Source: an uncultured Ruminococcus sp.
GTDB lineage: Bacteria > Bacillota > Clostridia > Oscillospirales > Ruminococcaceae
DNA length: 33,892 bases
Assembly: GCA_964466485.1 (NCBI GenBank)
Contig: CAYXNU010000001.1
Location: forward strand, 1 to 33,892
Direction: 5' to 3'
Numbering within the stretch: the stretch's first letter is position 1; each line of letters starts with the position of its first letter. The notes below the pieces were generated by a model. That model made no database searches and was not told the DNA's origin. It saw only the letters and a program-made list of their open reading frames with translations. The position numbers and the translations under genes were made by a program. Below are positions 1 through 22,062 of the stretch, piece after piece.

Positions 1-84
1 TATCAATAGATTTTAATATTATTTTATAGTATTATATCATATAGAAGAAGAAAACACAATGACTTTTTGAAAGGATGTATAATT

Positions 85-2070: not shown

Positions 2071-2083
2071 TATATCTTTGCAA

Positions 2084-2110
2084 GGAACGTCCATAGGGCG
2101 TTCCGTTTTT
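2084..2110 (+). terminator. Rho-independent terminator after the GH31 gene
   Basis: GGAACG (2084-2089), 9-nt loop, CGTTCC (2099-2104), followed by GTTTTT. Confidence 0.6.
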
Positions 2111-2142
2111 ATATATTTATGTTAAAATATCCAAAAATAATA

Positions 2143-2171
2143 TTGACAAATCAGCCCAAACAATGTATAAT
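2143..2171 (+). promoter_or_regulatory. Sigma-70-type promoter for the serpin gene
   Basis: TTGACA (2143-2148), 17-nt spacer, TATAAT (2166-2171), both perfect consensus. This places the transcription start downstream of the ATG at 2163 and supports the 2193 start. Confidence 0.7.
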
Positions 2172-2192
2172 ATGGTAATAGGAGGGGTTAAT

Positions 2193-7400: not shown

Positions 7401-10400
7401 TCCAAAGGGCTTTGTTATCTATTAAGGCATCAACCAATCTAGAATAGGTTTCAAACATTTCATCAACCATACTTTCTGGGAAGATTTCCTTAATAAAGTC
7501 TAGAACTAGTATTAGTTTTCCGTTCTCCTCTGAAACTTGATGGTCTAGCCAAACCTGTGGTGTTTCGGAACTTCTGTACACTCTGTTATCGAAAAGGCTT
7601 TGCTTTTCGTTTTTGTTCAAGCCTAAAGCACTAGTAAACACCACTGGAAATAGTAAGCTTTTAGCATCGTGTTTTTTAGTAAGTTCACGCTGTAGGGCAA
7701 CGCCGTCATAGTAAGGGTGGTCTAAATCTTTCCAAAGTTGTTGTTGAAGTATACGGCATCTTTCAAGGAAGTTATTTCCTTTAGAGAAGTCTGTTTCTAG
7801 CAACGTTAAGGAAGTAAAGTCGCCTATAATACTGTTAATATTTTCATGTAGGGGCAATCTGTTAAAGTGAGTCAAGTTTATAGTAAATTGTGGTTTTCTG
7901 CTCCAAACGTTTAATATTTCAACGTAGATACCTATTAGTAGTCCTGATGGTGTAATGCCACCGTATTCGGAAATAGTATTCTTTAGGGTGTTCCACCTAT
8001 CGTGTGGTACGACTTTTTCAAGGTGTGTAAACTGATAGTTTCCAGTGACGTTTTTCAAAGGTAGTTCGGGAGCTAGTGGAATAGTATCCAATCTGTCTAG
8101 CCAATAATTTTTGCTATCTTCATATAGGGTAGTTTCTTGAATAGCATCGTAGGCTACCATATAGTCCCTAAAGGATACGCCTATATCGTCTAGTATGCCG
8201 TTTGGGTTTTCATAGAAGTATTGCCATTCATTAAATAGTAAGAATATGCTAAAGCCATCAAAGATGATGTTATCAAAGCATAGGTTTAGACGATAGTTGC
8301 TATCATTAACTTTTATAACTCTAATATCGAATAGTGGAAAAGTTTCAGCGGTAAATAGCTTGTGGGACATTTCCTCACGGAGTTGCAATATAAAACTATT
8401 AGTTTCCTCAACGGGCTTGTTAGAGTAGTCATAGATAGGAATGGTATAGCTAGGCATATCTTTTAAAACCTGTTGGGACTGTCCATCTGGGAGTATTACA
8501 GTTCTCATCATATCTTGACGTGCAATAACCTTAAGTAGTGCAAGGTTAAGCTTTTCAACGTCAAGGGAAGTGTTTTCCACTTCAAAGTAATAGTGTGTAG
8601 ATATGTTTCCGAAATCGTAAATACCTTTTCTGCCTATTAGATATGCTTTCTGTACTTCAGTCATAGGGAAAGGCTCAAAGCGGTTTTTCTCATCATGTTG
8701 AATCTGTTTAAGGGGTTCTTCTTTGGTAGTGGTTTCCTCGCTAATGTAAAGTGTAACTCTTTCAGCCTGTTTTGAAAGTGTTGGGTATTCAAAGATATCT
8801 TCTAAAGAGAACTTTATGTTAAAACTTTCCTTAATGATATTACTCAAACGCACTGCGGATAGTGAATCCCCACCGAGTTCAAAGTAGTCATCGTTTAAGC
8901 TTACACGGGCAATTCCCAGTGTAGACTGCCATATATTAGCTAAAGATTTTTCCACTTCTGTGTTGGGTGCTATGTACTCTTTTTGAACTAGTACGCTTTC
9001 GTCAATCTCATAGGATGCCAAAGCTTTTTTATCGACTTTTCCGTTGGCGGTTATAGGTATGGAATCCAAAAAGATGTATACATTAGGTATCATGTAGTTT
9101 GGCAATTTAGAGTTTAGGAACTCTCTAATGTCATTCTTAAAGGTAGTTTCGTCAAGGTTAGACTTATCCTTTGCGACTATGTAGGCTACTAAGTGGTTGT
9201 TGTTAAGGGTATCTTTAAAGGTAGTAACTACATAGTTTTCCAACTTGCCGAACTTATTTAAAGCACTTTCTATTTCGCCTAGTTCTATTCTGTGTCCTCT
9301 AACTTTAACTTGAAAGTCTTTTCTTCCTAAAAACTCTATTATGCCGTCTTCTCTAAATCTTCCCAAATCTCCAGTCTTGTACCATCTTTTGTTGTTTTCG
9401 TCCATAAAGAAATGTGCTTGAGTCTGTTCGATATTGTTGCAGTAGTCTAGTGCAAGACCGTCACCACCGATTAAGAGTTCACCAGTAACCCATTCAGGAC
9501 AACCATAGCCCTTATCATTGACGATATTGTATTGCTGATTAGATAGCGGTTTGCCATAAGGTATAGATACCCATTCGCTGTTTAGTGGTAGAGAAACATC
9601 AAAGTAGTTCGACCAAATGGAAGCTTCTGTAGCACCACCCATGGAAGTTAGTTCGGAGTTTTCTGCGATAGCCTTTAGTTTGTATGGTATAGTTAAACCA
9701 ATCCAATCTCCAGAGAGGAACACTCTTTTTAGTGAGGGCAATGTAACGTTGCTATTTTCAGCAGATACTAAAAGCATATCTAGTATTGCAGGTACGGAGT
9801 TCCAAACGGTAACGTTGTACTTTAACACCGCTGATAGCCATCTTTCGGAGTTTCTTTTGTCGTTCTCATCGATAGTTATTATAGTACCACCAGCGTTTAA
9901 CATTCCAAAGATATCGTATACAGATAGGTCAAAGTCTAGGGAAGATATTGCTAGTATGCTATCATTCTCATTGATGTTGTACCTATCGTTAATATCGTAA
10001 ATAGTATTGTATGCACACCTATGTTGAATTTCAACGCCTTTGGGTTCTCCCGTTGAGCCTGATGTAAAGATGATATATGCTAAACTGTCTAAGTCTATGG
10101 TTACATCTTGTAAAGTGTTTTCGCTGTAGAGTAGTGCATCTTCTATTGAAACTACTGTTGCACTAGTTGGAAATTCTATACTAGAAATAGTATTGCTATC
10201 GGATAGCACAAACTTAATGTTTGCTCTGTTGTGTATGGAGGTTTGTCTATCCACTGGCTGATTTACTCCAATAGGTACATAACAACCATTAAACATTACA
10301 ACACCCAAAACAGCCTCTATTTGAGATATTCCTTTTGGGAGTGTTATAGCAACTTTGTCGTGGGGTTTAGCCCCACAGGATAGCAACTTATTTGCTATGT

Positions 10401-12180
10401 GTAGAGCATTATTTTTAAGTTGGCTGTAAGTAATGCATTCTCCAGTGGTAGAGTGTACAATAGCTTTCTTATCGGGATTTTTTTCTGCATATTCCAAAAA
10501 CTGCGATAGTAAATGGTTATTAGGGACGCTCTTTTTAGTAACCATACCATAAGAGTACCTATATGCGATATCGTCAGCAACTGTTAATATAGGCTCTTGT
10601 TCCCATCTGTCAATGCTTTGTGAAATATAGCTTAGATACTCGATATAGGCATCGAACATGGTATCTAGTACGCCTTTAGGGAAGATTTCGTCAACGCTGT
10701 CCCATTTTAGGAATAGTTCACCATCTTTGTAGTCAAACATTTGAAAGTCTAGCCAAACTTGTGGGGTTTGTGAAATCATGTAGTTTAGTTCGCCAAAGTT
10801 ATCTTGAACGCTTTTGCTTAAGATTGGTTCGCCTAGGTTACAAGCGAAAACTATAGGTGCTACGTTGCTATCGTTGTACTTTTTGGATAGTTCTCTAACT
10901 ACTTGCACCCCTGAATAGTTAGAGTATTCCATACTAGTATGAAAACTATTTTGGATAGCTTTAACATACTCTATAAAGCTTTGCTTTTGGGATAAGTCCA
11001 CGTCTAAAATTAGCAAGTTTGAAAAGTCGGATATAACATCTTCAATGCCGTCAAACTCTGTGTTTCTGTTGAATATAGGTAGGTTTATAACAAACTTTGA
11101 GTTTTCGCTCCATCTTTCTAGTACTATTGCATAGATTGTCAATAGCACCATAGCGGGTGTTATTTTGTACTTCTTTGAAAATTCCTTTATAGTAGACCAA
11201 TCTTCTTTAGAGATTATTCTATATCTAGTGTTAAACTTTACCGTGCTGACATTTTCAGGGTTGACCTTTACTGGCAACTTTGGACGTTCAGGCATATCGA
11301 GAAGTTTGTCATCCCAGTATTTTTTAGCGTTAAGGTATGCAGTAGATGTAGTATCTATGCTATCTTGTAAGTACTGTGCAAAACTCCAGTTAGCAGACTT
11401 TTCAGAGAGGTTTTTACCACTGTATAGTGTAGCTAAATCGTCGAGAACCCTTTGAAAGCTTTGAACATCCGCTACTAGTAAGTCTATATCGTAGTGTATT
11501 CTAAAGTCGTTATTTGGTAGCATAGATAACTCTAAACCGATATTGTTACCGTTTTCCACATCTAGTTTTCTATGAGATAGCTTTTCTCTAATATCCAACA
11601 ACTTTCTTTCAAGTTCGTCTGTAGCATAGGAAGTTAAGTCGTTTATAACCATATCACTAGGAGTAAAATCTTTTATGAGTTGCTGTTTGCCATTAGATGT
11701 AAACTTTGTATGCAACATAGGGTGATGTTGCAATAAAGTTTTCCATGCGTGGTTTAGTTTAGCAATATCTATATTTTTAGAGTTTATCTCAAGGTAAGCG
11801 TGACAGCCTATGCCACCCAACACTTGATTATCATGCCTACCCACCCAGTAGGAGTATTGAACGTCAGTCATATCATAAGGGGCGTAAATATCCACTGTAG
11901 GCTTTTCAGCTGGTACGTTTTGAACAACCTCTTTAGATTTTTTCTTTTTCCTTTGGACGTTTACTTGTTTGTGCCAACTTTCCAAAGTAGGCTTAGATAT
12001 TAGTTTAGCAAAAGTCACAGCAGAGCCTAATTTTCGCCATTGATTTACTAATCTCATAATTTGCAAAGAACTTAATCCCAACTCTATCAAGTTATCCGAG
12101 GTGGAAAAGTCATCGGTTCTTTTAAGCATTTCAAGAATGTTTTCTTTAATGCTTTGCATACTGAACAATTCTTGTTCCAA
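4414..12180 (-). CDS. Nonribosomal peptide synthetase, ArCP-Cy-A(Cys)-T-Cy-A(Cys, MT insert)-T
   Basis: Carrier serines: GLSSL (aa 35-39), GGDSL (aa 1103-1107), GGDSL (aa 2531-2535). Cy motifs: MTDVQYSYWVGR / DLLVAD / QTPQVWLDFQ and PMTEVQKAYLIGR / DNIIFDG / ETPQVWLDHQ. A cores: TSGSTGEPKG, TSGSTGKPKG, YKTGD, NGKVD. TTG start at 12180 (ATG 12159 is an alternative). Confidence 0.93.
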   Translation of the reverse strand: MEQELFSMQSIKENILEMLKRTDDFSTSDNLIELGLSSLQIMRLVNQWRKLGSAVTFAKLISKPTLESWHKQVNVQRKKKKSKEVVQNVPAEKPTVDIYAPYDMTDVQYSYWVGRHDNQVLGGIGCHAYLEINSKNIDIAKLNHAWKTLLQHHPMLHTKFTSNGKQQLIKDFTPSDMVINDLTSYATDELERKLLDIREKLSHRKLDVENGNNIGLELSMLPNNDFRIHYDIDLLVADVQSFQRVLDDLATLYSGKNLSEKSANWSFAQYLQDSIDTTSTAYLNAKKYWDDKLLDMPERPKLPVKVNPENVSTVKFNTRYRIISKEDWSTIKEFSKKYKITPAMVLLTIYAIVLERWSENSKFVINLPIFNRNTEFDGIEDVISDFSNLLILDVDLSQKQSFIEYVKAIQNSFHTSMEYSNYSGVQVVRELSKKYNDSNVAPIVFACNLGEPILSKSVQDNFGELNYMISQTPQVWLDFQMFDYKDGELFLKWDSVDEIFPKGVLDTMFDAYIEYLSYISQSIDRWEQEPILTVADDIAYRYSYGMVTKKSVPNNHLLSQFLEYAEKNPDKKAIVHSTTGECITYSQLKNNALHIANKLLSCGAKPHDKVAITLPKGISQIEAVLGVVMFNGCYVPIGVNQPVDRQTSIHNRANIKFVLSDSNTISSIEFPTSATVVSIEDALLYSENTLQDVTIDLDSLAYIIFTSGSTGEPKGVEIQHRCAYNTIYDINDRYNINENDSILAISSLDFDLSVYDIFGMLNAGGTIITIDENDKRNSERWLSAVLKYNVTVWNSVPAILDMLLVSAENSNVTLPSLKRVFLSGDWIGLTIPYKLKAIAENSELTSMGGATEASIWSNYFDVSLPLNSEWVSIPYGKPLSNQQYNIVNDKGYGCPEWVTGELLIGGDGLALDYCNNIEQTQAHFFMDENNKRWYKTGDLGRFREDGIIEFLGRKDFQVKVRGHRIELGEIESALNKFGKLENYVVTTFKDTLNNNHLVAYIVAKDKSNLDETTFKNDIREFLNSKLPNYMIPNVYIFLDSIPITANGKVDKKALASYEIDESVLVQKEYIAPNTEVEKSLANIWQSTLGIARVSLNDDYFELGGDSLSAVRLSNIIKESFNIKFSLEDIFEYPTLSKQAERVTLYISEETTTKEEPLKQIQHDEKNRFEPFPMTEVQKAYLIGRKGIYDFGNISTHYYFEVENTSLDVEKLNLALLKVIARQDMMRTVILPDGQSQQVLKDMPSYTIPIYDYSNKPVEETNSFILQLREEMSHKLFTAETFPLFDIRVIKVNDSNYRLNLCFDNIIFDGFSIFLLFNEWQYFYENPNGILDDIGVSFRDYMVAYDAIQETTLYEDSKNYWLDRLDTIPLAPELPLKNVTGNYQFTHLEKVVPHDRWNTLKNTISEYGGITPSGLLIGIYVEILNVWSRKPQFTINLTHFNRLPLHENINSIIGDFTSLTLLETDFSKGNNFLERCRILQQQLWKDLDHPYYDGVALQRELTKKHDAKSLLFPVVFTSALGLNKNEKQSLFDNRVYRSSETPQVWLDHQVSEENGKLILVLDFIKEIFPESMVDEMFETYSRLVDALIDNKALWIEDKKSIANIILPNEVVQANNTQSEISKETLLSLFNKTVQKYPNNVAITDSTTALTYAQLNTKANDIANVLLKNGMGVHKLVGVMVEKSINQIVSVMGVIKTGGGYVPLDIKYPKQRVEDILHEANVDYIVTDRNSYEKYNLGIIDTSFVILEDIPKCSENINAQSTSDSLAYVIYTSGSTGKPKGVSINNRGVVNTILDINERFSVTPNDRTIALSNLNFDLSVYDIFGMFSCGGAIVIVKEDNVKNPESWLQLMSTEKVTIWNTVPAFMQMLLEYSKDIVKENFSLRLALLSGDWIPLQLPNSIKDTFSHVDVISLGGATEASIWSNFYKIDTINPNWNSIPYGKPLKNQRFYILNSLMQSCPVNVVGTLYIGGVGLATGYLNNPVITSERFIKYHDEIVYNTGDIGKYLPDGNIEFLGREDFQVKIHGFRIELGEIEEVIKTNPTVKQSYAVVTDNKQIVDFIVPKTEENPKAVLPSDFTIDDIVQNFFDTNRLSAQQLDDFYQNLENISVDVVCKIFNAMGIFSESSPISLDDIVSKYSIDTRYYHLVGNWLKVLSNKGLAVLENGLYTFKEKAYKYAVVGGFDNEFNELNLIFSCSLEVIVSVLQGKTNPLELFISSDAPLTPLFMSKFNITANCQYASVLKVVKAIQNVSKEQPLNIAEIGTRSGSFTEFISQNLDFSNTTYTYLDTSSYFIEQKKSNVESSDIKYSTFDMEVSPYEQGTDTHTYDIIIADNTIHRSSNVNTALDNIKSLLKGNGILIVIEQLENNCFVMNTAGFLEDGFSHFEDLRKDTFLPLLNNEQWLNTFKKSSLDVIKAFGNGSTVEQSMRTGLYITKDSSNFANVNINEISKTATEKLTDYMLPSRYVIMDSVPITANGKVDRKYLLSVANNYSKHIPIKNILKPETATEQKLYEVWCDILKNENIGVTEKFFEIGGDSLIAIQCMNALKDRFNITVSLQDIFQIQTIRELASKVDEQISIDETSEDYDFAEF
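4861..5973 (-). other. Methyltransferase-like insertion inside the second adenylation domain
   Basis: About 400 aa lie between the A8 motif (GREDFQVKIHGFRIELGEIE, about aa 2014-2033) and the A10 motif (PITANGKVDRK, aa 2469-2479). Class I MT-like motifs: IAEIGTRSGS, YDIIIADNTIHR, LLKGNGILIVIE. Boundaries are approximate. Confidence 0.7.
11971..12180 (-). other. N-terminal aryl carrier protein (ArCP) domain of the large NRPS
   Basis: The first ~70 aa contain LIELGLSSLQIMRLVNQW directly upstream of a Cy domain. This is the ArCP-Cy arrangement of PchE/HMWP2-type loading modules. Boundaries are approximate. Confidence 0.7.
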
Positions 12181-12182
12181 AA

Positions 12183-13802
12183 TTAATCATTCCTTTCATT
12201 GGTGGCCATACACTGTAGAGCCTTTTTGTCTATCTTTCCTACTTTAGTTAAAGGGAAAGAGTCTATTAGTTGTAGTTGGTCGGGCATTTTGTAGTCAGAT
12301 ACACCTATACTTTTTAGGAAACTTCTAACCTCGGAAAGAGTTATGTTATCCCTATCAGACACGATAAATGCACATATTCTGTTACCTAAAACATCATCGG
12401 GTATACCAACAACAGATGCCTCTTTTATATCTGTATTTTTGCATAGGTTAGCTTCCACTTCGGATGGCATAATCTTTTCGCCACCCCTGTTAATCTGTTC
12501 CTTAATTCTACCAGTAACTATTATATTGCCGTTCTCATCAATCTTAGCTTTATCGCCAGAACGGTAGAAACCACTAGGCGTAAAACTTTCGTTATTCACT
12601 TCAGCGGATGCCCTATAGTAACTAGTTATGGTATATGCTCCACGCACGATAAGTTCGCCAAACTCTCCAGTAGGTAGGTCGTTTAGTTGGTCGTCCACGA
12701 TACGAATTTCGTCGTACTTAGATATTGGTTTTCCTTGACAGTTCACAACTGTGTTGCTATCGTCCTCAAGAGATGTTAAACACAACAACCCCTCTGCTAT
12801 ACCGAAAACTTGTTGCAATTTGCAACCTAAAGTTGGCTCTACTCTTACAGCAAGTTCTTTTTCAAATACAGAACCGCCTACTAACAAAAACCTTAATGAG
12901 CTAATGTCGTACTCGTTTTCCCATTCTAACATATCCAGTAGTATGGATACCATGGCAGGTACAAGCGATAACATAGTTACTTCATGTTCTTCAATCAATG
13001 GTAAAACCTCATCAATGCTAGGGGAGGGACACATTACAACAGTTCCGCCGTTTTCAAAGATTCCTAAAATACCAGGGCTACCCAAAGGAAAGTTATGGGC
13101 TACAGGTATTACACATAGAAATACATCATCTTCAGTAAGTTGACATCTTTCGGCACACTTTTGAAAATCGTATATATAGTCCGCATGGGTTCTAGGGATA
13201 AGTTTTGGAGTTCCTGTAGTACCACCCGAAAGTAGTATATGAGCGATATCTGTACATAGTGGTGGCTCATATGTAGCGATAGTATCATCGTTTATGTATA
13301 GAGTTTCTAGGTTTATAGCGTTCTTCATGTTGCCATCACAGATAATATTCTTTACACATGGGAACTTTTCAAGCATGGTATTAGCTAAACTTTCATAGCT
13401 AAAACCTAGGTAGTTTTCAGGGACTATATAAGCTACTGGTTTAACATTTTCAAATATGCCAGTTAGTTCAGCCTCTCTGTGTGCAGGAAGTACCAAAACA
13501 GGTAGCACACCAATCTTTTCTAGTGCAAACAGAACCGTCACAAAAGAAATGCTATTAGTTAGCTGTAGTATAACGTGGTCGCCCTTATGCATATTTAGAC
13601 CTAAAAAGCCTTTAACTAGCATATCCACTTTGGCATTTAGTTCACTGTAGGTAATGCTTTCGTCATTGAATATTACGGCATCCTTACTGGAATACTTTTC
13701 AGCCCATTCTTCCAGTTTTTCACCCATAGTGATATTTTTTAAACAATCGTCTAGTTGATAGTAATAGCTACTATCACGCTTTTGATATTCACACTCTTTC
13801 AT
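12183..13802 (-). CDS. Stand-alone aryl-acid adenylating enzyme (2,3-dihydroxybenzoate/salicylate-AMP ligase family, EntE/DhbE/YbtE/PchD-like)
   Basis: LLSGGTTGTPKLIPRTHADYIYD closely matches the EntE/DhbE core. HNFPLGSPG has Asn where amino-acid A domains have Asp. YRSGD...GRIKEQINRGGEKI also present. AGGAGG RBS lies 8 nt upstream of the ATG. Confidence 0.88.
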   Translation of the reverse strand: MKECEYQKRDSSYYYQLDDCLKNITMGEKLEEWAEKYSSKDAVIFNDESITYSELNAKVDMLVKGFLGLNMHKGDHVILQLTNSISFVTVLFALEKIGVLPVLVLPAHREAELTGIFENVKPVAYIVPENYLGFSYESLANTMLEKFPCVKNIICDGNMKNAINLETLYINDDTIATYEPPLCTDIAHILLSGGTTGTPKLIPRTHADYIYDFQKCAERCQLTEDDVFLCVIPVAHNFPLGSPGILGIFENGGTVVMCPSPSIDEVLPLIEEHEVTMLSLVPAMVSILLDMLEWENEYDISSLRFLLVGGSVFEKELAVRVEPTLGCKLQQVFGIAEGLLCLTSLEDDSNTVVNCQGKPISKYDEIRIVDDQLNDLPTGEFGELIVRGAYTITSYYRASAEVNNESFTPSGFYRSGDKAKIDENGNIIVTGRIKEQINRGGEKIMPSEVEANLCKNTDIKEASVVGIPDDVLGNRICAFIVSDRDNITLSEVRSFLKSIGVSDYKMPDQLQLIDSFPLTKVGKIDKKALQCMATNERND

Positions 13803-13827: not shown

Positions 13828-15105
13828 TTAGTTGTTAGGAAATACAAAATCATACACATTAGATGTATCATCCTGTAGCATAACTTCTATAGATTCCTTA
13901 GAGTATATAAGAGCATTGTTCATAGAAGTTGCACTGATAAGTTTAGGGTTAAACTCTCCAACGATTCTTATATTTTCAGTATCTTCCCAGTAGTTCAAGC
14001 ATAGGAAATTGTATCCATGGCTGTAGTTGGGCATAACTGGTTGAATATCCAAAGAGTCTACACCCTTAACAGACATATCGAAATTGTGGAAAGTTGCATA
14101 TATATTAGATACCATAGCGTTACAACCCTCAGCGTTTTTAATGTTTAAAGATGTCATTTTTAAGCAACGCTTTAAAGCCTCTGCGAAAGTTTCATCTTTT
14201 TTTATTTCAAAGATGTTAGGTAGTAACCTTGCTAAAGGACCAACCATCTTTAGTTGTTGGGCGGTTACTCTACTAGCAGATGCTTGACTTAGATAAGGAG
14301 TAGTAGTCTTAAACTCTTTTGCTATACCTAAACTCAAAGCTAATAGCACTACTGTGGCTTTAGATGTTTTATGTGCTTTAGCGAAGTTTTCAAGTAGTGT
14401 TTTGTCTATTTCAAAGGAAACTATTCCGTTGCTATGTGTATCGAATTGGCTTTCGTTAGGCTTAGGAAAGTCTATAAGATGTAAGTTCTTTAGGGTTTCG
14501 TTCCAGTAGTCTATTTTTGCTAAACCATTTGCTGTTAAGGATTTTTCATACAAGTTTTGGGAATGTTCTATAAAACTAACTTGAGGTTCAAAAGCGTTAG
14601 GGTTTTCGTAGTAGTAGAATAGCTTATTTAGTAGCACCACCATAGACGCACCATCGAACATAGTATGGTCTGCAACGAATGTTAAGAAGTAATCATTTTC
14701 GTCAATCTTGTATAGGTAGCAATAGAATAAAAGATTATTCAAAGCGTTTACATATGAAACTATATGCTCTATAGAAGTCTTTTCTGCGAACTTAAACCTA
14801 TCCTCGGTAGTGTCGCCAACAGTTGGGAGTACTTCCAACTTAAAAGAATACTCCTTTAAAACCCTTTGGACAAATCCGTCATTGTGCCTAAATATTCTAA
14901 TTCTAAGGGCATCATATGAGTTGTATAGGTTTTGTATAGCTTTTTCTAAGATGTTTAAGTCTAGGTTGCCTTTAATTCTTAAACACGCCGATAATGACAA
15001 GTTGTTTTTACCGTCTATATTATAGTTTGCATATAGGGATTGTGGAGATACTACAGGGAATGTATCATTGCCATTGCAATCTTTGTAATATATATTTTCA
15101 TTCAT
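13828..15105 (-). CDS. Free-standing condensation-domain protein
   Basis: 425 aa, one domain in size. Active-site region ADHTMFDGASM is an HHxxxDG variant (DHxxxDG) that retains the second His. No A or T domain is fused. Confidence 0.75.
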   Translation of the reverse strand: MNENIYYKDCNGNDTFPVVSPQSLYANYNIDGKNNLSLSACLRIKGNLDLNILEKAIQNLYNSYDALRIRIFRHNDGFVQRVLKEYSFKLEVLPTVGDTTEDRFKFAEKTSIEHIVSYVNALNNLLFYCYLYKIDENDYFLTFVADHTMFDGASMVVLLNKLFYYYENPNAFEPQVSFIEHSQNLYEKSLTANGLAKIDYWNETLKNLHLIDFPKPNESQFDTHSNGIVSFEIDKTLLENFAKAHKTSKATVVLLALSLGIAKEFKTTTPYLSQASASRVTAQQLKMVGPLARLLPNIFEIKKDETFAEALKRCLKMTSLNIKNAEGCNAMVSNIYATFHNFDMSVKGVDSLDIQPVMPNYSHGYNFLCLNYWEDTENIRIVGEFNPKLISATSMNNALIYSKESIEVMLQDDTSNVYDFVFPNN

Positions 15106-15125: not shown

Positions 15126-15371
15126 TTAATCGTTTTTAGATGAGGTTATAAAGTTTGCAAGTTCTTGAACAGTTTCATTTTCATAAATATCACTGATAAG
15201 TATTTCGATGTTGTGCTTTTCTAGCAATTCACTTGCTAGATAACTTGCTTTTAGTGAGTTTCCACCTAGTTCAAAGAAAGAACTTTCAGTTGTAACTTCT
15301 TCTTCCACCTCTAAAATGTTTTTAAAAAGTTCCTTAATTATACCAACGTAATCCATAGTTTTTTCTCCTTT
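15126..15371 (-). other. Carrier-protein segment of the TE-T gene, preceded by an in-frame internal RBS and ATG
   Basis: On the minus strand, AAAGGAG (15371-15365), 8 nt, then ATG (15356-15354, Met270) in the same frame as the TE. No stop codon separates the two parts. Confidence 0.6.
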
Positions 15372-16163
15372 CAAAGTTAAGGTTTTGCTTTGGTTTATAT
15401 AACTAGCTAATTCTTTAGCCATTACTTCTTTAATATCTGTTAAGTAGAAGTGTCCGCCATCAAACTCATGGTAGGATACTCTATTAGTGGTAAAGTTATC
15501 CCAATCATGAACGGCAAACTGCCGAATAGTCTTGTCCTTGTTGCCATACATAACGTATATAGGACAATTAAACTTAGCGTTTTCTGTATATTCATACTTA
15601 GACATCATTACTACATCGTTCTTGTAAGTTGGGATGTAGTAGTCTATAAAGTTTTTGTTATCCGCAAATGATGGAGTTACTAGTTCAAACTCAATCATTT
15701 TTTTAACTAGTTCCTCGTCGGATACTATACACTTGCCGTCATCATCAAGGATAATAGTTTGAGCCATAGCGTATTTAGGGGATTCTGTACCGGAAGCTAT
15801 TATGCAAAGGGGTTCTCTGTGTAGAATTTCCCTAACGTATAGGGCAACCTCATAAGCCACTAAAATACCAGTGCAATGCCCAAATAGTACGAAATCTTTT
15901 TGAAATAGTTCCATGTTGTCGTCTACAAACTTGTGAACCATTTCTTTTAAAGTATCTGGGAGAGGCTCATCTTTTCTAAGTTCTCTAGCTGGATATAGCA
16001 CAGGGCATAGGTTTATATCGTCAGCAAATAACTTTTTCCATGGTGCAAATAGGCTAGGACTTCCACCAGCATAAGTAAATAGTATTAAGTTCACGGATGC
16101 GTTTTCATGTGTAGTTCCATGAGCAATCCATATATTTTTACTTTTCAAAATTAAAATACCCAC
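15126..16163 (-). CDS. Type II thioesterase-like domain with Cys nucleophile fused to a C-terminal carrier protein (TE-T)
   Basis: YAGGS near the N-terminus. GHCTG (Cys97, codon 15873-15875) sits where GHSxG is expected. GGHFY His region present. The C-terminal 76 aa carry FFELGGNSL (Ser303). The annotated start is GTG at 16163; TTG at 16148 is also possible. Confidence 0.8.
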   Translation of the reverse strand: MGILILKSKNIWIAHGTTHENASVNLILFTYAGGSPSLFAPWKKLFADDINLCPVLYPARELRKDEPLPDTLKEMVHKFVDDNMELFQKDFVLFGHCTGILVAYEVALYVREILHREPLCIIASGTESPKYAMAQTIILDDDGKCIVSDEELVKKMIEFELVTPSFADNKNFIDYYIPTYKNDVVMMSKYEYTENAKFNCPIYVMYGNKDKTIRQFAVHDWDNFTTNRVSYHEFDGGHFYLTDIKEVMAKELASYINQSKTLTLKGEKTMDYVGIIKELFKNILEVEEEVTTESSFFELGGNSLKASYLASELLEKHNIEILISDIYENETVQELANFITSSKND

Positions 16164-16809
16164 CTTTCAAAAAATCGTCACACTTTAAGATTTTAGGTTT
16201 TGTATTAAAACTTAAATCTTCGCAACATATAGATATATAACAATTATTACACTTAAAGGGATAAATCAAAATGTTGTTAAAAGTTTGCGGAATATCTTCT
16301 TGCAACTTTGAGAAATCCGTGGAGTTGATAGTATTTGCCAAACCAGTACCAACCAACTTGAAATAGCTTTCTTTTACGCTCCACATAAGAGTAAACGCTT
16401 TAGGGATATCATTCGAGGTTGAAATGCTAAAAAGTTCATTTTTGGAAAATATATTACTGGAAAGCACTACAGACTTCTCACTTATATCTTGAATATCGCA
16501 ACCGATATCCTTGTTAGATATTGCACATATTACACCATCTTTGCAATGCGAAAGATTAAAAAATATATTTGGATATCCTAAAAGATATGGCTTGTGATAT
16601 TCGTTGTATTTAAAAATAGGCTCAGCTTGTATGTTATATTCGCAATATAGCCCGTATCTAAGTATAAGGTATGCTATTAGCGATAGTTTTCTATCCAACA
16701 TAAAGCGGTACTTATCCACTCTATGCAAACGCTCTTTCGATAGAAAACGTTTAAGTTTATAGAAACTCTCATCACTTAGATTGTTTAAATCTTGAAATAC
16801 ATATAACAT
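16138..16809 (-). CDS. Sfp-type 4'-phosphopantetheinyl transferase
   Basis: Motifs HKPY...FFNLSHCKD, GCDIQDI and WSVKESYFKLVGTGL. The ATG overlaps the upstream stop (TAATG at 16807-16811). Confidence 0.85.
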   Translation of the reverse strand: MLYVFQDLNNLSDESFYKLKRFLSKERLHRVDKYRFMLDRKLSLIAYLILRYGLYCEYNIQAEPIFKYNEYHKPYLLGYPNIFFNLSHCKDGVICAISNKDIGCDIQDISEKSVVLSSNIFSKNELFSISTSNDIPKAFTLMWSVKESYFKLVGTGLANTINSTDFSKLQEDIPQTFNNILIYPFKCNNCYISICCEDLSFNTKPKILKCDDFLKGGYFNFEK

Positions 16810-17588
16810 TATGAAAATACCCTAGTGTTAATAGTTATCTCATTGAATATAGTTTTTAGTACACTCTTTTCATTTTCCTCATATGGGAAGAAGTGTCCAC
16901 CTTTAAATTCAAACTGTTTAAAGTCCGAAGAAGTTACTCTGTTCCAGTTTTTCATGTGGTCTAGATTTGCGTCGGTATCATCTTTGCCACTTAGTGCCAC
17001 AATAGGGATATCTAAAACTTCTCCATGGTATGAATAGCTTTCATGTAGTTTATAGTCGTTAAAAATCATAGGTAGTATAAACTTAGCGAAATCGGAGTTT
17101 TCTAATAAAGCTTTAGGTGTAGCACCAACTCTAAGGAGTTCTTTTTTTAGTGCATCTATTCCCATAGAGCTTTTGTAAACCACTGGGTCTGCGTTCATAG
17201 GGGCGTGTCTACCTGCAACTATTAGCTTTTGGATATCCATGTTAAAAGCATTTCTTAAAACGTAAGCCGTTTGAAAAGCGACTATTCCACCCAAACTATG
17301 CCCATATATGTAAGTAGGGCGGTAGTCGTCACAGGAAAAGTCTGCTATTGCTTGAGAAGTTTTCTCTACTAGTTCGTTAACGTTTGTGATACAACTTTCC
17401 TTAATTCTAGTACTTCTACCAGGGTTTTAAACTGGTATTATTTCGACTAGGGGGTTATATTTTAACCAACTTCTAAATATATATACACTACCTCCAGCGT
17501 GATTGAAACAAAACATCTTGTAAGGTTTATAACTTTTTTTCAAGTTATATGGAAACCATTTTTTTAATTCAATACTACTATCTAGCAT
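16809..17588 (-). pseudogene. Type II thioesterase interrupted by an in-frame TAA (codon 54)
   Basis: My own translation from ATG 17588 gives MLDSSIELKKWFPYNLKKSYKPYKMFCFNHAGGSVYIFRSWLKYNPLVEIIPV-TAA(17427-17429)-NPGRSTR...YIYGHSLGGIVAF...GGHFF. The frame is unchanged across the stop. The total is 260 codons, the right size for a TEII. Confidence 0.75.
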
Positions 17589-17590
17589 AA

Positions 17591-20500
17591 TTACAAAGCA
17601 CTCCTAATAAACTTAGATAAATCCTCAATGTTTGGGTTGTTTAACATCTCAACTAATATGTCATTAAACATAACTTTATTTTCAAACTTATCTTTTAAAA
17701 TACTTGCTACATTACCCATAATTAAAGAGTTTGCACCTAAATCGTAAAAATCATCTGTTTTGGAGATACTGCTTATATTTAAAGCATCTTTCCAAACATC
17801 AGCGAGTATAGTTTCGATATCGTCGAAAGTTTCAACAACTTGACTGTTTTTACTGCTATAGTTTTTCAATTCTAGCATAATGCTTTCAGCAACGGACTTT
17901 CTATCAACCTTACCATTAGGTGTTAAAGGTATGTTCTCAGTAAAGAAAATCTTTTGTGGTAGCATATACTTAGGCAAGAGTTTACTAGCATAGGCTTGAA
18001 TATTTTCTTCCATAGCAGTTAAATCGCTATCAGTAGGGGAGTTAAGTTTAACGTAGGCATATAGCTTTTTTTCTTCTGCTTTTTGCCCTAATGCTACTAC
18101 AACTACATTTTCAACGTTTGGATGTTTTTGTATACCGCTTTCAACCTCTCCTAGTTCGATTCTATAGCCCATGACCTTAACTTGAAAATCTTTTCGTCCT
18201 AGGAACTCTATGTTGCCATCGAGCATATATCTACCCATGTCACCAGTTTTGTACATTAGCTGATTATCATAAGGGTTTTTGATAAACCTATTGTTAGTTT
18301 CTTCGGGGTTGTTTAAATATTCCTTAGCCAGTCCAACACCCGTGATAAATAGTTCTCCCTCCACTAGCAAAGGACAATCTTTCAAGTTGTCATCTAAAAC
18401 CCTAAAGCCTTGATTGTACATAGGTTTTCCATATGGTATGCTTGTCCATGTGGGGTTTAGAGTAGTATACTCATACAAGATAGACCATATAGATGCCTCA
18501 GTTGCACCGCCTAAACTTACACACTTAATACTCTTATTATACTTCTTAATGTCATCAAATAGGTTTAAAGCAATCCAGTCCCCCGATAGCATAACTAGTC
18601 TAACGTTAGGGAGTTCATAAGTGTTGCTATCCACAAAGTTCATGAATATTTTCATAAAGGCTGGTACACTGTTCCAAATGGTTACGTTGTACTGTTTAAC
18701 CAAATCAAACCAGTGTGACGGATTAGTGTATCTATCCAAACTAGGATATACCACTGTACCACCCACAGATAGCAACCCAAAAATATCATACACAGATAAA
18801 TCAAAGTATAGCTGAGATAGACCTATAGCAGTATCATTTTCAGTGACGTTAAACCTTTCGTTAATATCTTCTATAGTATTCACAGCTGAACCATGGTTTA
18901 TTACTACTCCTTTAGGAACTCCAGTAGAACCCGATGTATGTATCACATAGGCGGGGCTATCTAAACTAGTATCCGATTTCAAGCAGTTTCCTAAAGACTT
19001 TTCTAGGGTGTCAACATCTACCGTTATGACTTTGCTATCGTAGTCTTTGTTCACACTGGATAACGTTAATACTATCCTAATATTTGCGTTCTTTATGATG
19101 GTATTCTTTCTATCTGTAGCCTGTTGGCTGTCTATGGGAACGTATACACAACTTTCCGATAGCACACCCAATACTGAATATATTTGGTATACCGATTTAG
19201 GCATAGCTACTCCAATGCATTCCCCAGACTGAACTTGTAACTCTTTTAGCCTAGTTGCCACAGAAGAAGCATTTAGAATAACATCCTCATAGGTGTACTG
19301 AATATCATCTTGAATTACAGCAACCTTGTCTTTACGGATGTTAAACTGTTCTATAATCTTGCCATGTAGGGTATGCTTTGGAAGTTCTTTCTTAGTAGCA
19401 TTTGCAGTATCTAGTAGTAGCTTTTGTGCTTGTGGCAAAGATACATAGTTTAGGGTATTCCAAATAGTGTTATCTGTTGCTAAAGCGTTTAACAAGCTTT
19501 CAAACATTTGGAACATATCTTCAACCATGCCCTTTGGAAATACGTTGTTTCTAACGTCCCAGTTTACCCTTAAGCCAAAGTTTCCGTCCATAGCTTGACA
19601 GTCTATAAAAACTTGTGGGGTTTGACTGATACAGCTATCCGTCATAACGCCCTTAATAGACGTACTGCTCAACCCTATAGCACTAGTAAACACTATAGGC
19701 ATTAGGGAGTTTTTATTGCCTTTAACCTTTGCCAACTCTCTAATAACTTCCACCCCAGAGAATAGCCTGTGTTCCATATCGGAAAATAGTTGATTGTTCA
19801 ACTGTAGAGCATACTCTAAAAAGGTTTTCTGTTTAGACATATTAACTTCTAAAAGGTTAATGGAAGTGAAATCTCCTACAATATCCATAATCTGTTCATG
19901 CACAGGCAACCTATTTAGTACGGTTAAGTTTATACAGAAGTCTTTGTTTTTGCTCCATCTTTCGATTATAGAAGAATATGCTGTAATTATTGCACACGTT
20001 GGAGTAATTCCAAACTGTTTAGTTTTGTCTTTAAAGCGGTTGTATTTCTCAAGGGACATACTTAAACTATGCCTAGTAAAGCCCACAGGAGAGTCCGCAT
20101 TTTGAGGGAGTACTGGTAGGTTTGGGGCTAATGGAATATCTTCCAATCTGTCGCACCAATACTTCTTATCTTTGGCATAGGATATGCTATCTTTGTAGTT
20201 AGTATATGCTAACTGGTAGTCATGGAAAGTTATATCCAGTGGTTTTAACACATAGTTTGGATTAAAGTACAAACTTTCAAACTCTGAAAGTAGTAGCCAT
20301 ATACTAGCCCAATCCGCTATGATAAACTCTATTGAAAAGTTAAATAAGTCATAGTCATCTAGTTTGGTTACTTGAATATCAAAGGCAAAACCGTTTTCAA
20401 TATCGAATACTTTGTGGCTAAACTCATCACGAATGTATGACAACTTTTCTTCCCTTGCGGAATCTTCCATACCTCTTAAATCGTTCGTTTTGATAACAAA

Positions 20501-20956
20501 CTTTGGAACATCTTTCAAGACTCTTTGTAGGTTATCGCTTGATATCGACGCTCTAAGCATATCGTGTCTTTGGATTAAAGTATTCCAAATATTTTCAACT
20601 GTAGGAACGTCTAAGCTATCGTACTTTAGTTCTATGTAAATTTGACATGAAAGCCCACCATATTCAAAAATGTTACTTCTACCCATTAGGTACGATGATT
20701 GAATATCCGTCAACTGGAACTTTTCAAACACTTGCTCCCCAGTAGATTTTTTTAACAAGTCTTTCATGGAAAGACTATCCTTTAATATGTAATCTATGCA
20801 TAGTTGCTTATTAGACTTTATAAACTCAACATCTTCAGCAGTGATAACGCCTTTAGGTGCTTTGTAGCCTATCTTTCCATCTTTTACATATAGATTAACT
20901 CCTTTGTTTTGTAGTTCTGCAATATATGCCGGAACTGTAGAAACTATTCTATCCAT
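17591..20956 (-). CDS. Nonribosomal peptide synthetase, docking domain-Cy-A(Cys)-T
   Basis: Cy motifs FQLTDIQSSYLMGR, GDFTSINLLE, PIVFTSAIG, QTPQVFIDCQ. A cores HTSGSTGVPKG, YKTGD, PNGKVDRK. Carrier GANSL. ATG 20956 is preferred (AAGGAG 5 nt upstream) over 20998, which would overlap the upstream gene. Confidence 0.92.
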   Translation of the reverse strand: MDRIVSTVPAYIAELQNKGVNLYVKDGKIGYKAPKGVITAEDVEFIKSNKQLCIDYILKDSLSMKDLLKKSTGEQVFEKFQLTDIQSSYLMGRSNIFEYGGLSCQIYIELKYDSLDVPTVENIWNTLIQRHDMLRASISSDNLQRVLKDVPKFVIKTNDLRGMEDSAREEKLSYIRDEFSHKVFDIENGFAFDIQVTKLDDYDLFNFSIEFIIADWASIWLLLSEFESLYFNPNYVLKPLDITFHDYQLAYTNYKDSISYAKDKKYWCDRLEDIPLAPNLPVLPQNADSPVGFTRHSLSMSLEKYNRFKDKTKQFGITPTCAIITAYSSIIERWSKNKDFCINLTVLNRLPVHEQIMDIVGDFTSINLLEVNMSKQKTFLEYALQLNNQLFSDMEHRLFSGVEVIRELAKVKGNKNSLMPIVFTSAIGLSSTSIKGVMTDSCISQTPQVFIDCQAMDGNFGLRVNWDVRNNVFPKGMVEDMFQMFESLLNALATDNTIWNTLNYVSLPQAQKLLLDTANATKKELPKHTLHGKIIEQFNIRKDKVAVIQDDIQYTYEDVILNASSVATRLKELQVQSGECIGVAMPKSVYQIYSVLGVLSESCVYVPIDSQQATDRKNTIIKNANIRIVLTLSSVNKDYDSKVITVDVDTLEKSLGNCLKSDTSLDSPAYVIHTSGSTGVPKGVVINHGSAVNTIEDINERFNVTENDTAIGLSQLYFDLSVYDIFGLLSVGGTVVYPSLDRYTNPSHWFDLVKQYNVTIWNSVPAFMKIFMNFVDSNTYELPNVRLVMLSGDWIALNLFDDIKKYNKSIKCVSLGGATEASIWSILYEYTTLNPTWTSIPYGKPMYNQGFRVLDDNLKDCPLLVEGELFITGVGLAKEYLNNPEETNNRFIKNPYDNQLMYKTGDMGRYMLDGNIEFLGRKDFQVKVMGYRIELGEVESGIQKHPNVENVVVVALGQKAEEKKLYAYVKLNSPTDSDLTAMEENIQAYASKLLPKYMLPQKIFFTENIPLTPNGKVDRKSVAESIMLELKNYSSKNSQVVETFDDIETILADVWKDALNISSISKTDDFYDLGANSLIMGNVASILKDKFENKVMFNDILVEMLNNPNIEDLSKFIRSAL
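20774..20956 (-). other. TubC-N-like N-terminal NRPS docking domain
   Basis: VPAYIAELQNKGVNLYVKDGKIGYKAPKGVITAEDVEFIKSNKQL follows the TubC docking pattern (L..L...GV.L...g.L.Y.APKG.lt.e....i...K). It precedes the Cy domain. Confidence 0.6.
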
Positions 20957-20967
20957 AAGAACTCCTT

Positions 20968-22062
20968 TCAAATAAGACACTCCTCTTGAATATCGCATAT
21001 ATGTGAACTATATACGCTGTAATCTTCAAAGACGTTTAAACTTTCAAGGTTGTGCCAAATATCTTCAACGTACTTTGAACAGTATATAGGATACACACCG
21101 CTATCAATATTTCCGTTGTATATAGATAGTGCTTGTGCCACGGCGACTGCTCCCGTTAAGTACTGTTGACTTTCCACGGTTAATGCGGTAGTAACTGCCT
21201 TAGGTTTTCCGTCGTTGTCTAGACCGTCAAGTTGTACTAGGTATTGAACATATTTCCTATCGTCAAGCACATCTTGTTTAGATACTTCAACTAATTCATC
21301 TATAGTGTTTTCAATACTGTTTTTGTACTTTGAGGGCAACTTCTCAAAAAATTCTAACATATTCTTTCCACTGGTAGCACTGTACCATTCACTGTGGTTG
21401 CACTGTGTAAAGTCTGCCACATACTTAGTTTCGTCATCGTAGTAAGGGAATAGCTTTACTGCATTAAAAAGTTTTGGAAGTACAATCTTATTAAAAGCCC
21501 TGTTGCTATTGAAAAAAGAGTTTCTATCCTTATAGATATACATAACATCGTTGTTGTTGCCATGCATAATGCCGTTTAAATAGTCTTTACTGGCAATGTG
21601 ACTAAAAACTCCTTTTATCTCATATATGGATACTATGTTTTCCACTTTGCTAAAACCTTTGGACTGCACTAGGGGTAACATTCCTGAAACCCCTGGCACT
21701 GACCCTGAGCAGTATACTATAGCGTTATTAGTGTTAGTATACTTGCAAGTATCCACATTGCACAAGCCAACATCTACTAGATGTGTTTGCTTTTTAATAG
21801 CCATATCTATTAGAAGTGGTGTACTCTTGTAAGATGAACCTGAACAGTTAATAACGATACTACATCCGTTGAAAAATTCCTCAAGTGTATCTTGTGAGAA
21901 TATATCAACGTTCTTACAGATGGCATTATTTATACCACTAGGTATACTATTGCTATTGATGTTTCTACTGCCAACTTTAATAGTTTCGTTTGGCAAAACT
22001 TTAGATAGTATCTCTAAAGCCTTAGAGCCTATACTTCCAGTACCGCCCAATAGACCTATCAT
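20968..22062 (-). CDS. Saccharopine dehydrogenase-like NAD(P)-binding oxidoreductase
   Basis: N-terminal Rossmann motif MIGLLGGTGSIGSKA, then ...VDIFSQDTLEEFFNGCSIVINCSG...LVDVG, typical of the Sacchrp_dh_NADP fold. AAGGAGGTG RBS upstream of the ATG. Confidence 0.6.
   Translation of the reverse strand: MIGLLGGTGSIGSKALEILSKVLPNETIKVGSRNINSNSIPSGINNAICKNVDIFSQDTLEEFFNGCSIVINCSGSSYKSTPLLIDMAIKKQTHLVDVGLCNVDTCKYTNTNNAIVYCSGSVPGVSGMLPLVQSKGFSKVENIVSIYEIKGVFSHIASKDYLNGIMHGNNNDVMYIYKDRNSFFNSNRAFNKIVLPKLFNAVKLFPYYDDETKYVADFTQCNHSEWYSATSGKNMLEFFEKLPSKYKNSIENTIDELVEVSKQDVLDDRKYVQYLVQLDGLDNDGKPKAVTTALTVESQQYLTGAVAVAQALSIYNGNIDSGVYPIYCSKYVEDIWHNLESLNVFEDYSVYSSHICDIQEECLI

Follow-up and report, generated by a model that had tools for sequence, protein, structure and literature searches.

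What does a thioesterase (TE) with a cysteine nucleophile do when it is encoded apart from the modules of a nonribosomal peptide synthetase (NRPS) and is joined to a carrier protein of its own? The question is raised by an open reading frame (ORF) at positions 15126..16163 (minus strand, 345 amino acids from a GTG) of a 33,892-nucleotide stretch, hereafter the window, from an uncultured Ruminococcus sp. (GenBank assembly GCA_964466485.1, contig CAYXNU010000001.1). A preliminary description of the ORF had regarded the Cys as a rare substitution linked to unusual release chemistry, as in obafluorin biosynthesis, and had taken the protein to be the real off-loading or shuttling enzyme of the pathway because no module ends in a TE. 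Domain searches agree that no module in the window ends in a TE, nor in a reductase (R) domain. Of the two roles, shuttling is the one best supported by the gene contexts of relatives, and off-loading survives only as a rival that must contend with a relative placed in the middle of an assembly line in Hathewaya histolytica. Our favoured reading, which we hold at about even confidence, is that the protein is a Cys-dependent carrier-to-carrier transacylase, similar to type II thioesterases (TEIIs) and fused to its acceptor carrier. Overall, the earlier interpretation is thus partly supported.

The ORF encodes two domains. Residues 26-249 (15417..16088) form a TEII-like alpha/beta-hydrolase domain (PF00975, E 2.8e-23, above the cutoff), with Cys97 (codon TGC, 15873..15875) in the nucleophile elbow GHCTG (Gly95-His96-Cys97-Thr98-Gly99). 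The predicted triad is completed by Asp210 (GAC, 15534..15536; motif GNKD, at the position of RifR-like TEIIs) and His238 (CAC, 15450..15452; motif GGHFY). Asp210 is invariant and His238 nearly invariant in our two alignments (A1 and A2), and their counterparts in RifR lie in its GxxD and GGHF motifs. A carrier (T, or peptidyl carrier protein, PCP) domain follows at residues 276-339 (15147..15338; PF00550, E 2.1e-12), with Ser303 (TCA, 15255-15257) of GGNSL as the site of phosphopantetheine attachment, and the ORF ends with TAA at 15126-15128. Direct reading of the codons confirmed the GHCTG and GGHFY motifs as first described, and likewise that there is no stop between the TE and T domains. 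In a sequence search of the PDB, the fused T matched PCPs and not aryl carrier proteins (ArCPs). Since a Shine-Dalgarno (SD) sequence immediately abuts the GTG at 16163, the TTG at 16146-16148 (residue 6) is the likelier start, in which case the residue numbers may drop by 5.

The preliminary description had also pointed to an AAAGGAG-N8-ATG just before Met270 and had offered two explanations, a fusion of two genes or a stand-alone carrier made from an internal start. The signal is present at the domain junction (15354..15371, with AAAGGAG at 15365-15371 and the ATG at 15354-15356). AAGGAG-N5-10-ATG is found at five places in the window, the junction included, where 1.4 would be expected; among the four others, one is a listed ORF start (22062) and two fall at in-frame ATGs slightly within listed ORFs (20956, 32852), which we read as the real starts of those ORFs. 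Because the pattern is over-represented and lies mostly at gene starts in the window, the junction looks like a real start site, with a signal of the quality seen at genuine window genes. It derives from a carrier gene that once stood alone and is most simply a relic of it, if not a start that can still be used. The fusion itself is borne out by comparison. P0002, a fragment from a different source (99% identical), has the same uninterrupted junction (LKGEKTMDYVG), and P0001 (78% identical), from a locus (L001) syntenic with the window, has both GHCTG and the fused TE-T arrangement. As these sequences agree independently, Cys97 can be taken not to be a sequencing error and the fusion to be genuine; a corrected sequence with a stop before Met270 is contradicted by both P0002 and P0001, and one with Ser at position 97 by P0001. 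In the fused orthologue of L001, however, Val-Asn stands where the window has its Met270 start and there is no start codon, so that a stand-alone carrier from an internal start is neither required nor shown. An exact-match query of public assemblies with the window protein returned nothing.

RifR is the best PDB match to the TE domain, both by sequence (1.2e-23) and with a profile of the clade described below (1.9e-38). In an AlphaFold2 (AF2) model the TE domain is predicted with a confidence score (pLDDT) above 90, and the top Foldseek matches of the model are RifR, ClbQ, RedJ, BorB, and YbtT, with target-normalised TM-scores (TMt) of 0.74-0.90. By sequence and by predicted structure, the N-terminal domain belongs among the TEIIs, although it has GHCTG where that family has a Ser nucleophile (GxSxG). 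The Cys is not peculiar to the window. It occupies the elbow in all homologues of at least 34% identity (GHCTG, with a few GQCTG and GHCLG), whereas the elbow of homologues at or below 31% identity is GHS[ML]G. In a scan of one genome per species, G[HQ]CTG was present in 11/11 matches of at least 33% identity, found in Ruminococcus, Eubacterium, Cellulosilyticum, Lachnospiraceae, Bianquea, other Bacillota, and one metagenome-assembled genome labelled Propionibacteriaceae; the next 21 matches checked comprised 20 with Ser and one without a readable motif.

To count the clade, an exhaustive profile search was followed by profile alignment and a neighbour-joining tree. Matches scoring 250 bits or more have Cys at the elbow in 38 cases and Ser in none, and those scoring 200-250 bits have Cys in 26 and Ser in nine. 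The window protein falls within a pure-Cys clade (72/72) nested among Ser-TEIIs, which is monophyletic in this tree; the same alignment column is Ser in 148/148 Ser-type TEIIs. His238 is retained in 70 of the 72 members, and the residue after the elbow Cys is usually Thr, as opposed to Met or Leu in Ser-TEIIs. The homologue comparison suggested by the preliminary description, on how frequent GHCxG is, therefore ends in complete fixation within the clade. Some members have Gln in place of the His before the Cys (GQCTG in P0014, P0008, and P0010, and in loci L012, L013, and L015), and in P0014 the triad His is replaced by Arg (GGRFY). The clade is sizeable, and in the literature we found no characterisation of it and no described Cys TEII transacylase. 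Those of its members that can be placed belong to NRPS clusters of anaerobic Firmicutes that are aryl-capped and heterocyclising; the clusters of relatives come from Clostridia of the rumen and gut, among them Ruminococcus, Eubacterium, Cellulosilyticum, and Hathewaya, and our literature search found no described product for them. In a tblastn search of plasmids with the window protein every match was distant: identities stayed below 60% throughout and did not exceed 32% among the matches listed. The top one, on a plasmid of Anaerococcus prevotii, was set aside as an ordinary GHSMG TEII of a separate NRPS cluster.

Two features of the gene neighbourhoods recur across these relatives. The first is a separate Ser-TEII encoded beside the Cys-TE, in the window and in L001, L002, L005-7, L009, L011, L016-19, L090, and L095. 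Because this second enzyme is nearly always co-encoded, the Cys-TE is not the editing TE. The second is that the Cys-TE travels together with a free condensation (C) domain and a small carrier lacking an adenylation (A) domain, whose position varies. The carrier is free after the NRPS in L005, L009, and L010, and free after the C gene in L012, L013, and L095; its gene overlaps the TE gene in L016 and L017. It is fused as C-T in L014, L099, and P0037, as TE-C-T in P0089, and as TE-T in the window and L001 and again in the more distant P0131 and P0147, whose TE domains are 30-33% identical to that of the window. Free T proteins of 68 amino acids are among the relatives, and further fusions in the clade include TE-C (P0093), TE-A (P0113, P0171), and A-T-TE (P0103), the T-TE order being found in both P0103 and the P0114 family. 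Since T is a separate gene in most relatives, the TE-T protein of the window is best described as a gene fusion of two cooperating neighbours.

The contexts most telling for function are those in which a carrier would be stranded if the Cys-TE were simply a hydrolase. In H. histolytica (L090), a clade member lies in mid-line, at the end of a first subunit with the order ArCP, heterocyclisation (Cy), A, T, and Cys-TE ([ArCP-Cy-A-T-CysTE]). The genes that follow encode a free A enzyme, a Ser-TEII, a phosphopantetheinyl transferase, and then a free T protein of 120 amino acids (T120; 17330-17692), which has an acidic C-terminal tail (..DADQLNIESDTTDFEEGTL) like the docking tail of the window NRPS (..DEQISIDETSEDYDFAEF). 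The T120 gene overlaps that of a [TubC_N-Cy-A(MT)-T-TE] subunit (MT, methyltransferase), which has its own TE (GYCMGG) and is followed by a saccharopine-dehydrogenase-like gene. The line thus has a separate terminal TE, and the docking-tailed T120 has neither an A nor a C domain, so that something must load it; within this locus, the cis Cys-TE is the only candidate for loading a chain onto T120. A similar logic applies to four loci (L091, L092, L097, and L098; proteins 62-71% identical), in which [ArCP-Cy-A-T-CysTE] is always followed by a free T-R protein whose GATGYLG and YxxxK motifs are intact, and in which no C domain is present. In Cellulosilyticum ruminicola (L011), a free Cys-TE occurs with a free T-R, and the 20.7 kb examined there contain no free C. 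If the Cys-TE were a plain hydrolase, the T120 and T-R carriers would stay unloaded. For L091 and L097 we considered release followed by re-activation by a free A enzyme (A + T-R, as in a carboxylic acid reductase, CAR), and judged it less likely, since the single free A enzyme must load the ArCP.

On this basis, the window protein could work as follows. An upstream carrier, most probably T3 in the final Cy-A-T module, would present its cargo as a phosphopantetheine-bound thioester; Cys97, activated by His238 and Asp210, would attack this thioester, giving an acyl-S-Cys enzyme. From there the cargo would move to the fused T domain, onto the thiol of the phosphopantetheine arm at Ser303. This T has no dedicated A domain to load it, and it would offer the cargo to the neighbouring free C (13828-15105), which it could serve as donor or acceptor, for the last condensation or for release. 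As all three species are thioesters, the transfer would be roughly energy-neutral, which offers a reason for Cys rather than Ser; chemistry at the thioester level would explain why Cys is fixed in the clade. We infer the acyl transfer itself, its direction, and the cargo, which could be the full chain or a cysteinyl unit. The observations in support are the TEII fold, the fixed Cys, the separate Ser-TEII, the mobile small carrier, the orphan carriers, and the lack of a cis TE or R domain in the line.

A broader version of this reading, which we advance tentatively and consider possible rather than probable, is that the all-Cys clade as a whole may consist of dedicated peptidyl-chain translocases, which would pass a whole or partial aryl-thiazoline chain to a free adaptor carrier via acyl-S-Cys. 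The chain would be picked up from the last carrier of one NRPS subunit, and the adaptor would be coupled to a free C domain (window), an R domain (L091, L097, L011), or the next subunit (through the docking tail in H. histolytica). Such proteins would constitute a plug-in cassette for hand-over and release, with the window TE-T as its self-loading form. To our knowledge, enzymatic transfer from one T domain to another has been described for aminoacyl units only and not for whole chains. If the transacylase reading is true, it would supply a missing piece of NRPS logic, namely how a chain reaches a carrier that has no adenylation or condensation domain; it would offer engineers a small portable part, a Cys-TE with a carrier, with which to join assembly lines to different release enzymes; and it would give a reason, in the energy-neutral transfer from thioester to thioester, for the fixed Cys of one TEII subfamily.

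Carrier shuttles of the TEII type and of the Cys-hydrolase type are already known, as are the Cys TEs of coelibactin-like lines. The closest precedent in kind is LgnA, the TEII of legonmycin and legonindolizidine biosynthesis, which moves Thr between T domains through an acyl-enzyme, delivers it to the T of an A-less module, and has co-evolved with its NRPS partners (PMC8748450). LgnA shares with the window enzyme a TEII fold and its free-standing nature, but it uses Ser77 (GHSxG), carries an aminoacyl cargo, has no carrier fusion, and belongs to an actinomycete pyrrolizidine pathway. The window enzyme, by contrast, has a fixed Cys and a fused carrier, and the contexts of its relatives imply transfer of a whole aryl-thiazoline chain. 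CmaE and SyrC, too, belong to the alpha/beta-hydrolases, and their nucleophile is the Cys of a GxCxG motif. Together with CysB, they shuttle aminoacyl groups between carriers in the coronamic acid, syringomycin, and cystobactamid pathways; shuttling by CysB is reversible, and the carrier that receives from CmaE, CmaD, stands free and corresponds to the fused T of the window (PMC7966384). We liken these three to the window enzyme by their described activity and, for CmaE and SyrC, by GxCxG; they are separate proteins that handle single amino acids, whereas the window has a TEII-type PF00975 domain fused to a carrier.

Several points weigh against a transacylase. The function that we assign to the clade is drawn entirely from domain logic and synteny, and the AF2 model gives the fused T a pLDDT of only 50-67, too low to read a docking geometry between TE and T. 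LgnA does the same job with Ser, so a Cys is not diagnostic of shuttling. In pathways of this class, an A domain can load the A-less T of a different module in trans (PMC9396620), and a transacylase is therefore not strictly necessary for an orphan T. In the window and its closest relatives, moreover, the free C could itself transfer the chain from T3 to the fused T, if this were aminoacylated, and release would then fall to the Cys-TE, and the C-T and T-TE arrangements of relatives (the latter in P0103 and the P0114 family) are canonical orders for a termination module.

These points lead to the alternative that survives best, though we consider it rather unlikely: the Cys-TE may be the trans-acting release TE of a split, A-less terminal module made up of C, T, and TE. 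An in-line Cys-specific A domain would load the fused T in trans, the free C would condense the chain from T3 onto it, and Cys97 would take the product from Ser303 and release it by hydrolysis or aminolysis. Such a scheme fits a line in which no module ends in TE or R. It also accounts for the minimal cluster L010, which has four carriers, three condensing domains, and three A domains, as would be predicted with the free C joining T3 to the free T and with one A domain loading two carriers; the loading of several T domains in trans by one A is documented for yersiniabactin-like lines (PMC9396620). The C-T fusions (L014, P0037, L099) and the T-TE order (P0114 family, P0103) would suit a termination module, and the same pathway class includes terminal TEs that depend on their Cys, in the sorangibactin and coelibactin lines (PMC10127202), as well as the Cys-bearing TEs of PchF architecture. 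What the scheme leaves unexplained is the mid-line clade member of H. histolytica, where another TE terminates the line and a docking-tailed free T follows, as well as L011 and the loci in which a cis Cys-TE is consistently paired with a free T-R lacking A or C. It demands different functions in close members of one clade, and it is on these contexts that we prefer transfer between carriers.

A special case of release, which we consider improbable, is that the Cys97 acyl-enzyme resolves by ring formation or capture, in the manner of ObiF, SulM, or SrbD, to give a beta-lactone, a thiolactone, or an adduct with a free amino acid that captures the acyl group. Products of this kind are made by all three Cys TEs that have been characterised, and exchanging their Cys for Ser abolishes or diverts the reaction (PMC6668435, PMC11298585, PMC10127202); the ObiF and SulM TEs, moreover, group with type II TEs (PMC6668435, PMC11298585). 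ObiF (obafluorin) and SulM (sulfazecin) resemble the window enzyme in their Cys nucleophile, in a TEII-like triad with the Asp at the RifR position, and in an energy-neutral transthioesterification onto the enzyme. They are nevertheless distant relatives, at E 4.1e-07 for ObiF1 and 3.2e-04 for SulM against 1.9e-38 for RifR with the clade profile, and at Foldseek ranks 23 and 31, which weakens the obafluorin link drawn in the preliminary description. Both are cis-terminal and form a beta-lactone or a beta-lactam, while the window enzyme is free-standing and has its T domain C-terminal to the TE; the Gln-Cys-Asn of SulM is absent, His-Cys-Thr standing in its place. The difficulties of context are the same as for release in general.

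Sorangibactin is of the same pathway class as the window cluster. Its cluster encodes a free salicyl-A enzyme, a seven-domain NRPS, and a five-domain NRPS; the Cys of the SrbD TE is essential, C1586A and C1586S both abolishing production; and its saccharopine-dehydrogenase-like protein SrbE, which has a counterpart in the coelibactin cluster, is essential with a role that is unknown (PMC10127202). Sorangibactin thus shares with the window an aryl cap, an ArCP-Cy-A-T-Cy-A(MT)-T subunit, and a saccharopine-dehydrogenase-like protein, a likeness that speaks for ring formation or capture. The SrbD/PchF/coelibactin class as a whole has in common with the window a free aryl-A, ArCP-Cy-A-T-Cy-A(MT)-T, a TubC_N-docked Cy module, and a Sacchrp_dh_NADP protein, and the window cluster, by its predicted domain order, has the architecture of the pyochelin/coelibactin/sorangibactin class. 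The SrbD and PchF TEs also share the elbow Cys, but they are cis-terminal, whereas the window enzyme is free-standing, TEII-like, and T-fused. All proteins of PchF architecture (TubC_N-Cy-A(MT)-T-TE) that we compared (P0285, P0292-P0334), from Pseudomonas, Burkholderia, Streptomyces, Xenorhabdus, and Acetitomaculum, have G[YH]C[SMV]GG at the elbow. A search with the clade profile (A2) found no PchF-architecture TE at E 1e-3, and the alignment between the two groups is confined to the elbow (G[YH]CxGG); on these comparisons, PchF-type TEs are a TE lineage distinct from the window clade. A Cys nucleophile seems to be the rule for the terminal TEs of pyochelin/coelibactin-type lines, and pyochelin is released by hydrolysis (PMC10510592). 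Since two distant TE lineages of aryl-thiazoline lines both use Cys, and the release of pyochelin is hydrolytic, Cys is no marker of exotic release and does not by itself predict a ring. The assumption that the Ser-to-Cys exchange is rare and signals unusual release therefore fails for this class of pathway: in aryl-thiazoline metallophore pathways, Cys in the TE is the rule and not a rarity.

It is very improbable, in our estimate, that the protein is an ordinary editing TEII that happens to carry Cys, with the T fused by chance read-through. The editing TEIIs (RifR, RedJ, BorB, YbtT, ClbQ, SrfD) are free-standing and share the Pfam family of the window domain; they are also its best matches in sequence and structure, RifR, RedJ, BorB, YbtT, and ClbQ being the closest solved structures. 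The Ser-TEII of the window is broken, as described below, and a second TEII could substitute for it. Editing TEIIs, however, have Ser and hydrolyse mis-primed carriers, and the cluster family of the window keeps a separate Ser-TEII besides the Cys enzyme in most loci. Neither the fixation of Cys in 72/72 clade members nor the occurrence of members in cis after a T, or fused to C, T, or A partners, is what an accidental variant would lead us to expect, and the TE-T fusion is present in two orthologues (78% identical) and again in distant members (P0131, P0147). That a sequencing or assembly error made the Cys codon or the read-through is scarcely credible in spite of the strong SD-ATG exactly at the junction and of an in-frame stop in the adjacent Ser-TEII that betrays at least one lesion or error, given that P0002, from another source, has the same junction, that P0001/L001 is fused too, and that GHCTG is found in all close homologues.

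The genes from 3672 to ~28250 all lie on the minus strand and jointly encode an aryl-capped, heterocyclising NRPS. A free-standing aryl-acid adenylating enzyme (12183..13802, minus strand) is DhbE/PchD-like (TIGR02275, E 2.4e-168, below the cutoff; DhbE 1MD9, E 2.5e-139), with specificity residues that form a hybrid of the dihydroxybenzoate (DHB) and salicylate types (HNFPLGSPG, QQV, GLLCL). Relative to DhbE, Tyr236 is changed to Phe, Ser240 and Val329 are kept, and GLVNY is changed to GLLCL. No isochorismate or salicylate synthase gene was seen in the window. The 2588-amino-acid NRPS (4414..12180, minus strand) has the order ArCP-Cy-A-T-Cy-A(MT)-T with DxxxxDxxS Cy motifs and no TE, and the motif of its N-terminal ArCP is ELGLSSLQ. 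The last module, a TubC_N docking domain followed by Cy-A-T (17591..20956, minus strand), ends directly after T3, again without a TE. The ORF listed at 17591..20998 probably starts at Met15 (ATG 20954-20956), behind an AAGGAG, and that start puts the TubC_N docking domain at the N-terminus of the protein. The acidic C-terminal tail of the 2588-amino-acid NRPS, quoted above (window 4414-4470), pairs with the TubC_N domain (20750-20956) as a docking pair. FDLSVYD, a Cys-type motif, is found in all three amino-acid A domains of the window.

Because the NRPS has its own ArCP, we rejected as a main reading that the free aryl-A enzyme uses the fused T as its aryl carrier, a role also contradicted by the PCP-type GGNSL and PCP-type PDB matches of this T; the A-T-CysTE protein P0103 keeps it a minor possibility.

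The free-standing C domain protein (13828..15105, minus strand; 425 amino acids) has DHTMFDG, and its xHxxxDG motif is conserved in all orthologues. A PDB search with it gave weak matches to Cy and C domains, VibH not among them. In L001 the free C gene (11050-12403) was called as two pieces (343 and 83 amino acids) that are 35% identical to the window C; it may be decaying or strongly diverged, the TE-T fusion nonetheless being kept. In a more distant Cys-TE branch (Bianquea, Ruminococcus callidus, and others), the free C domain is replaced by a free acyl carrier protein, a ketosynthase (KS), and a KS-like or chain-length-factor-like gene (L016 4427-6756; L019 4775-7027; L093 4762-7007).

An Sfp-type phosphopantetheinyl transferase (16138..16809, minus strand) overlaps the start of the TE-T ORF. 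Beyond it lies an ordinary Ser-TEII (GHSLGG; 16809..17588, minus strand), in which a codon check showed codon 54 (17427-17429) to be an in-frame TAA, the only lesion in an otherwise intact gene. Its L001 counterpart is intact, with GAA at that position (..PVEIPGRS), and the TAA of the window reflects either a recent nonsense mutation or an error in sequencing. The saccharopine-dehydrogenase-like protein (20968..22062, minus strand) has the same Pfam domain (Sacchrp_dh_NADP) as SrbE of sorangibactin. Its gene is also present in L001, L002, L011-L014, L090, and L095, and in L012 and L013 it directly follows CysTE-C-T. Further genes of the window encode a serine O-acetyltransferase, two ABC half-transporters, and an ECF transporter.

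The TE tree contains a second pure-Cys clade of 33 domains, which are tandem TE domains of large non-NRPS megasynthases. These proteins (P0115, P0117, P0126, P0127, P0130, P0134, P0141, P0148, P0151-P0157, and others) are 0.6-2.7 thousand amino acids long, have no match to the A or C domains of the window NRPS, and carry their tandem TEII-like domains at the end; in the first the elbow reads GHC[LMV]G, and in the second its central residue is once more Cys, or else Asp (GHDLG). Beside the cluster, the plus strand of the window at 67-3599 encodes a GH31 glycosidase and a serpin, and in L001 a dockerin-bearing peptidase (1-250) adjoins the syntenic cluster; these flanking genes point to a cellulolytic Clostridium-type host.

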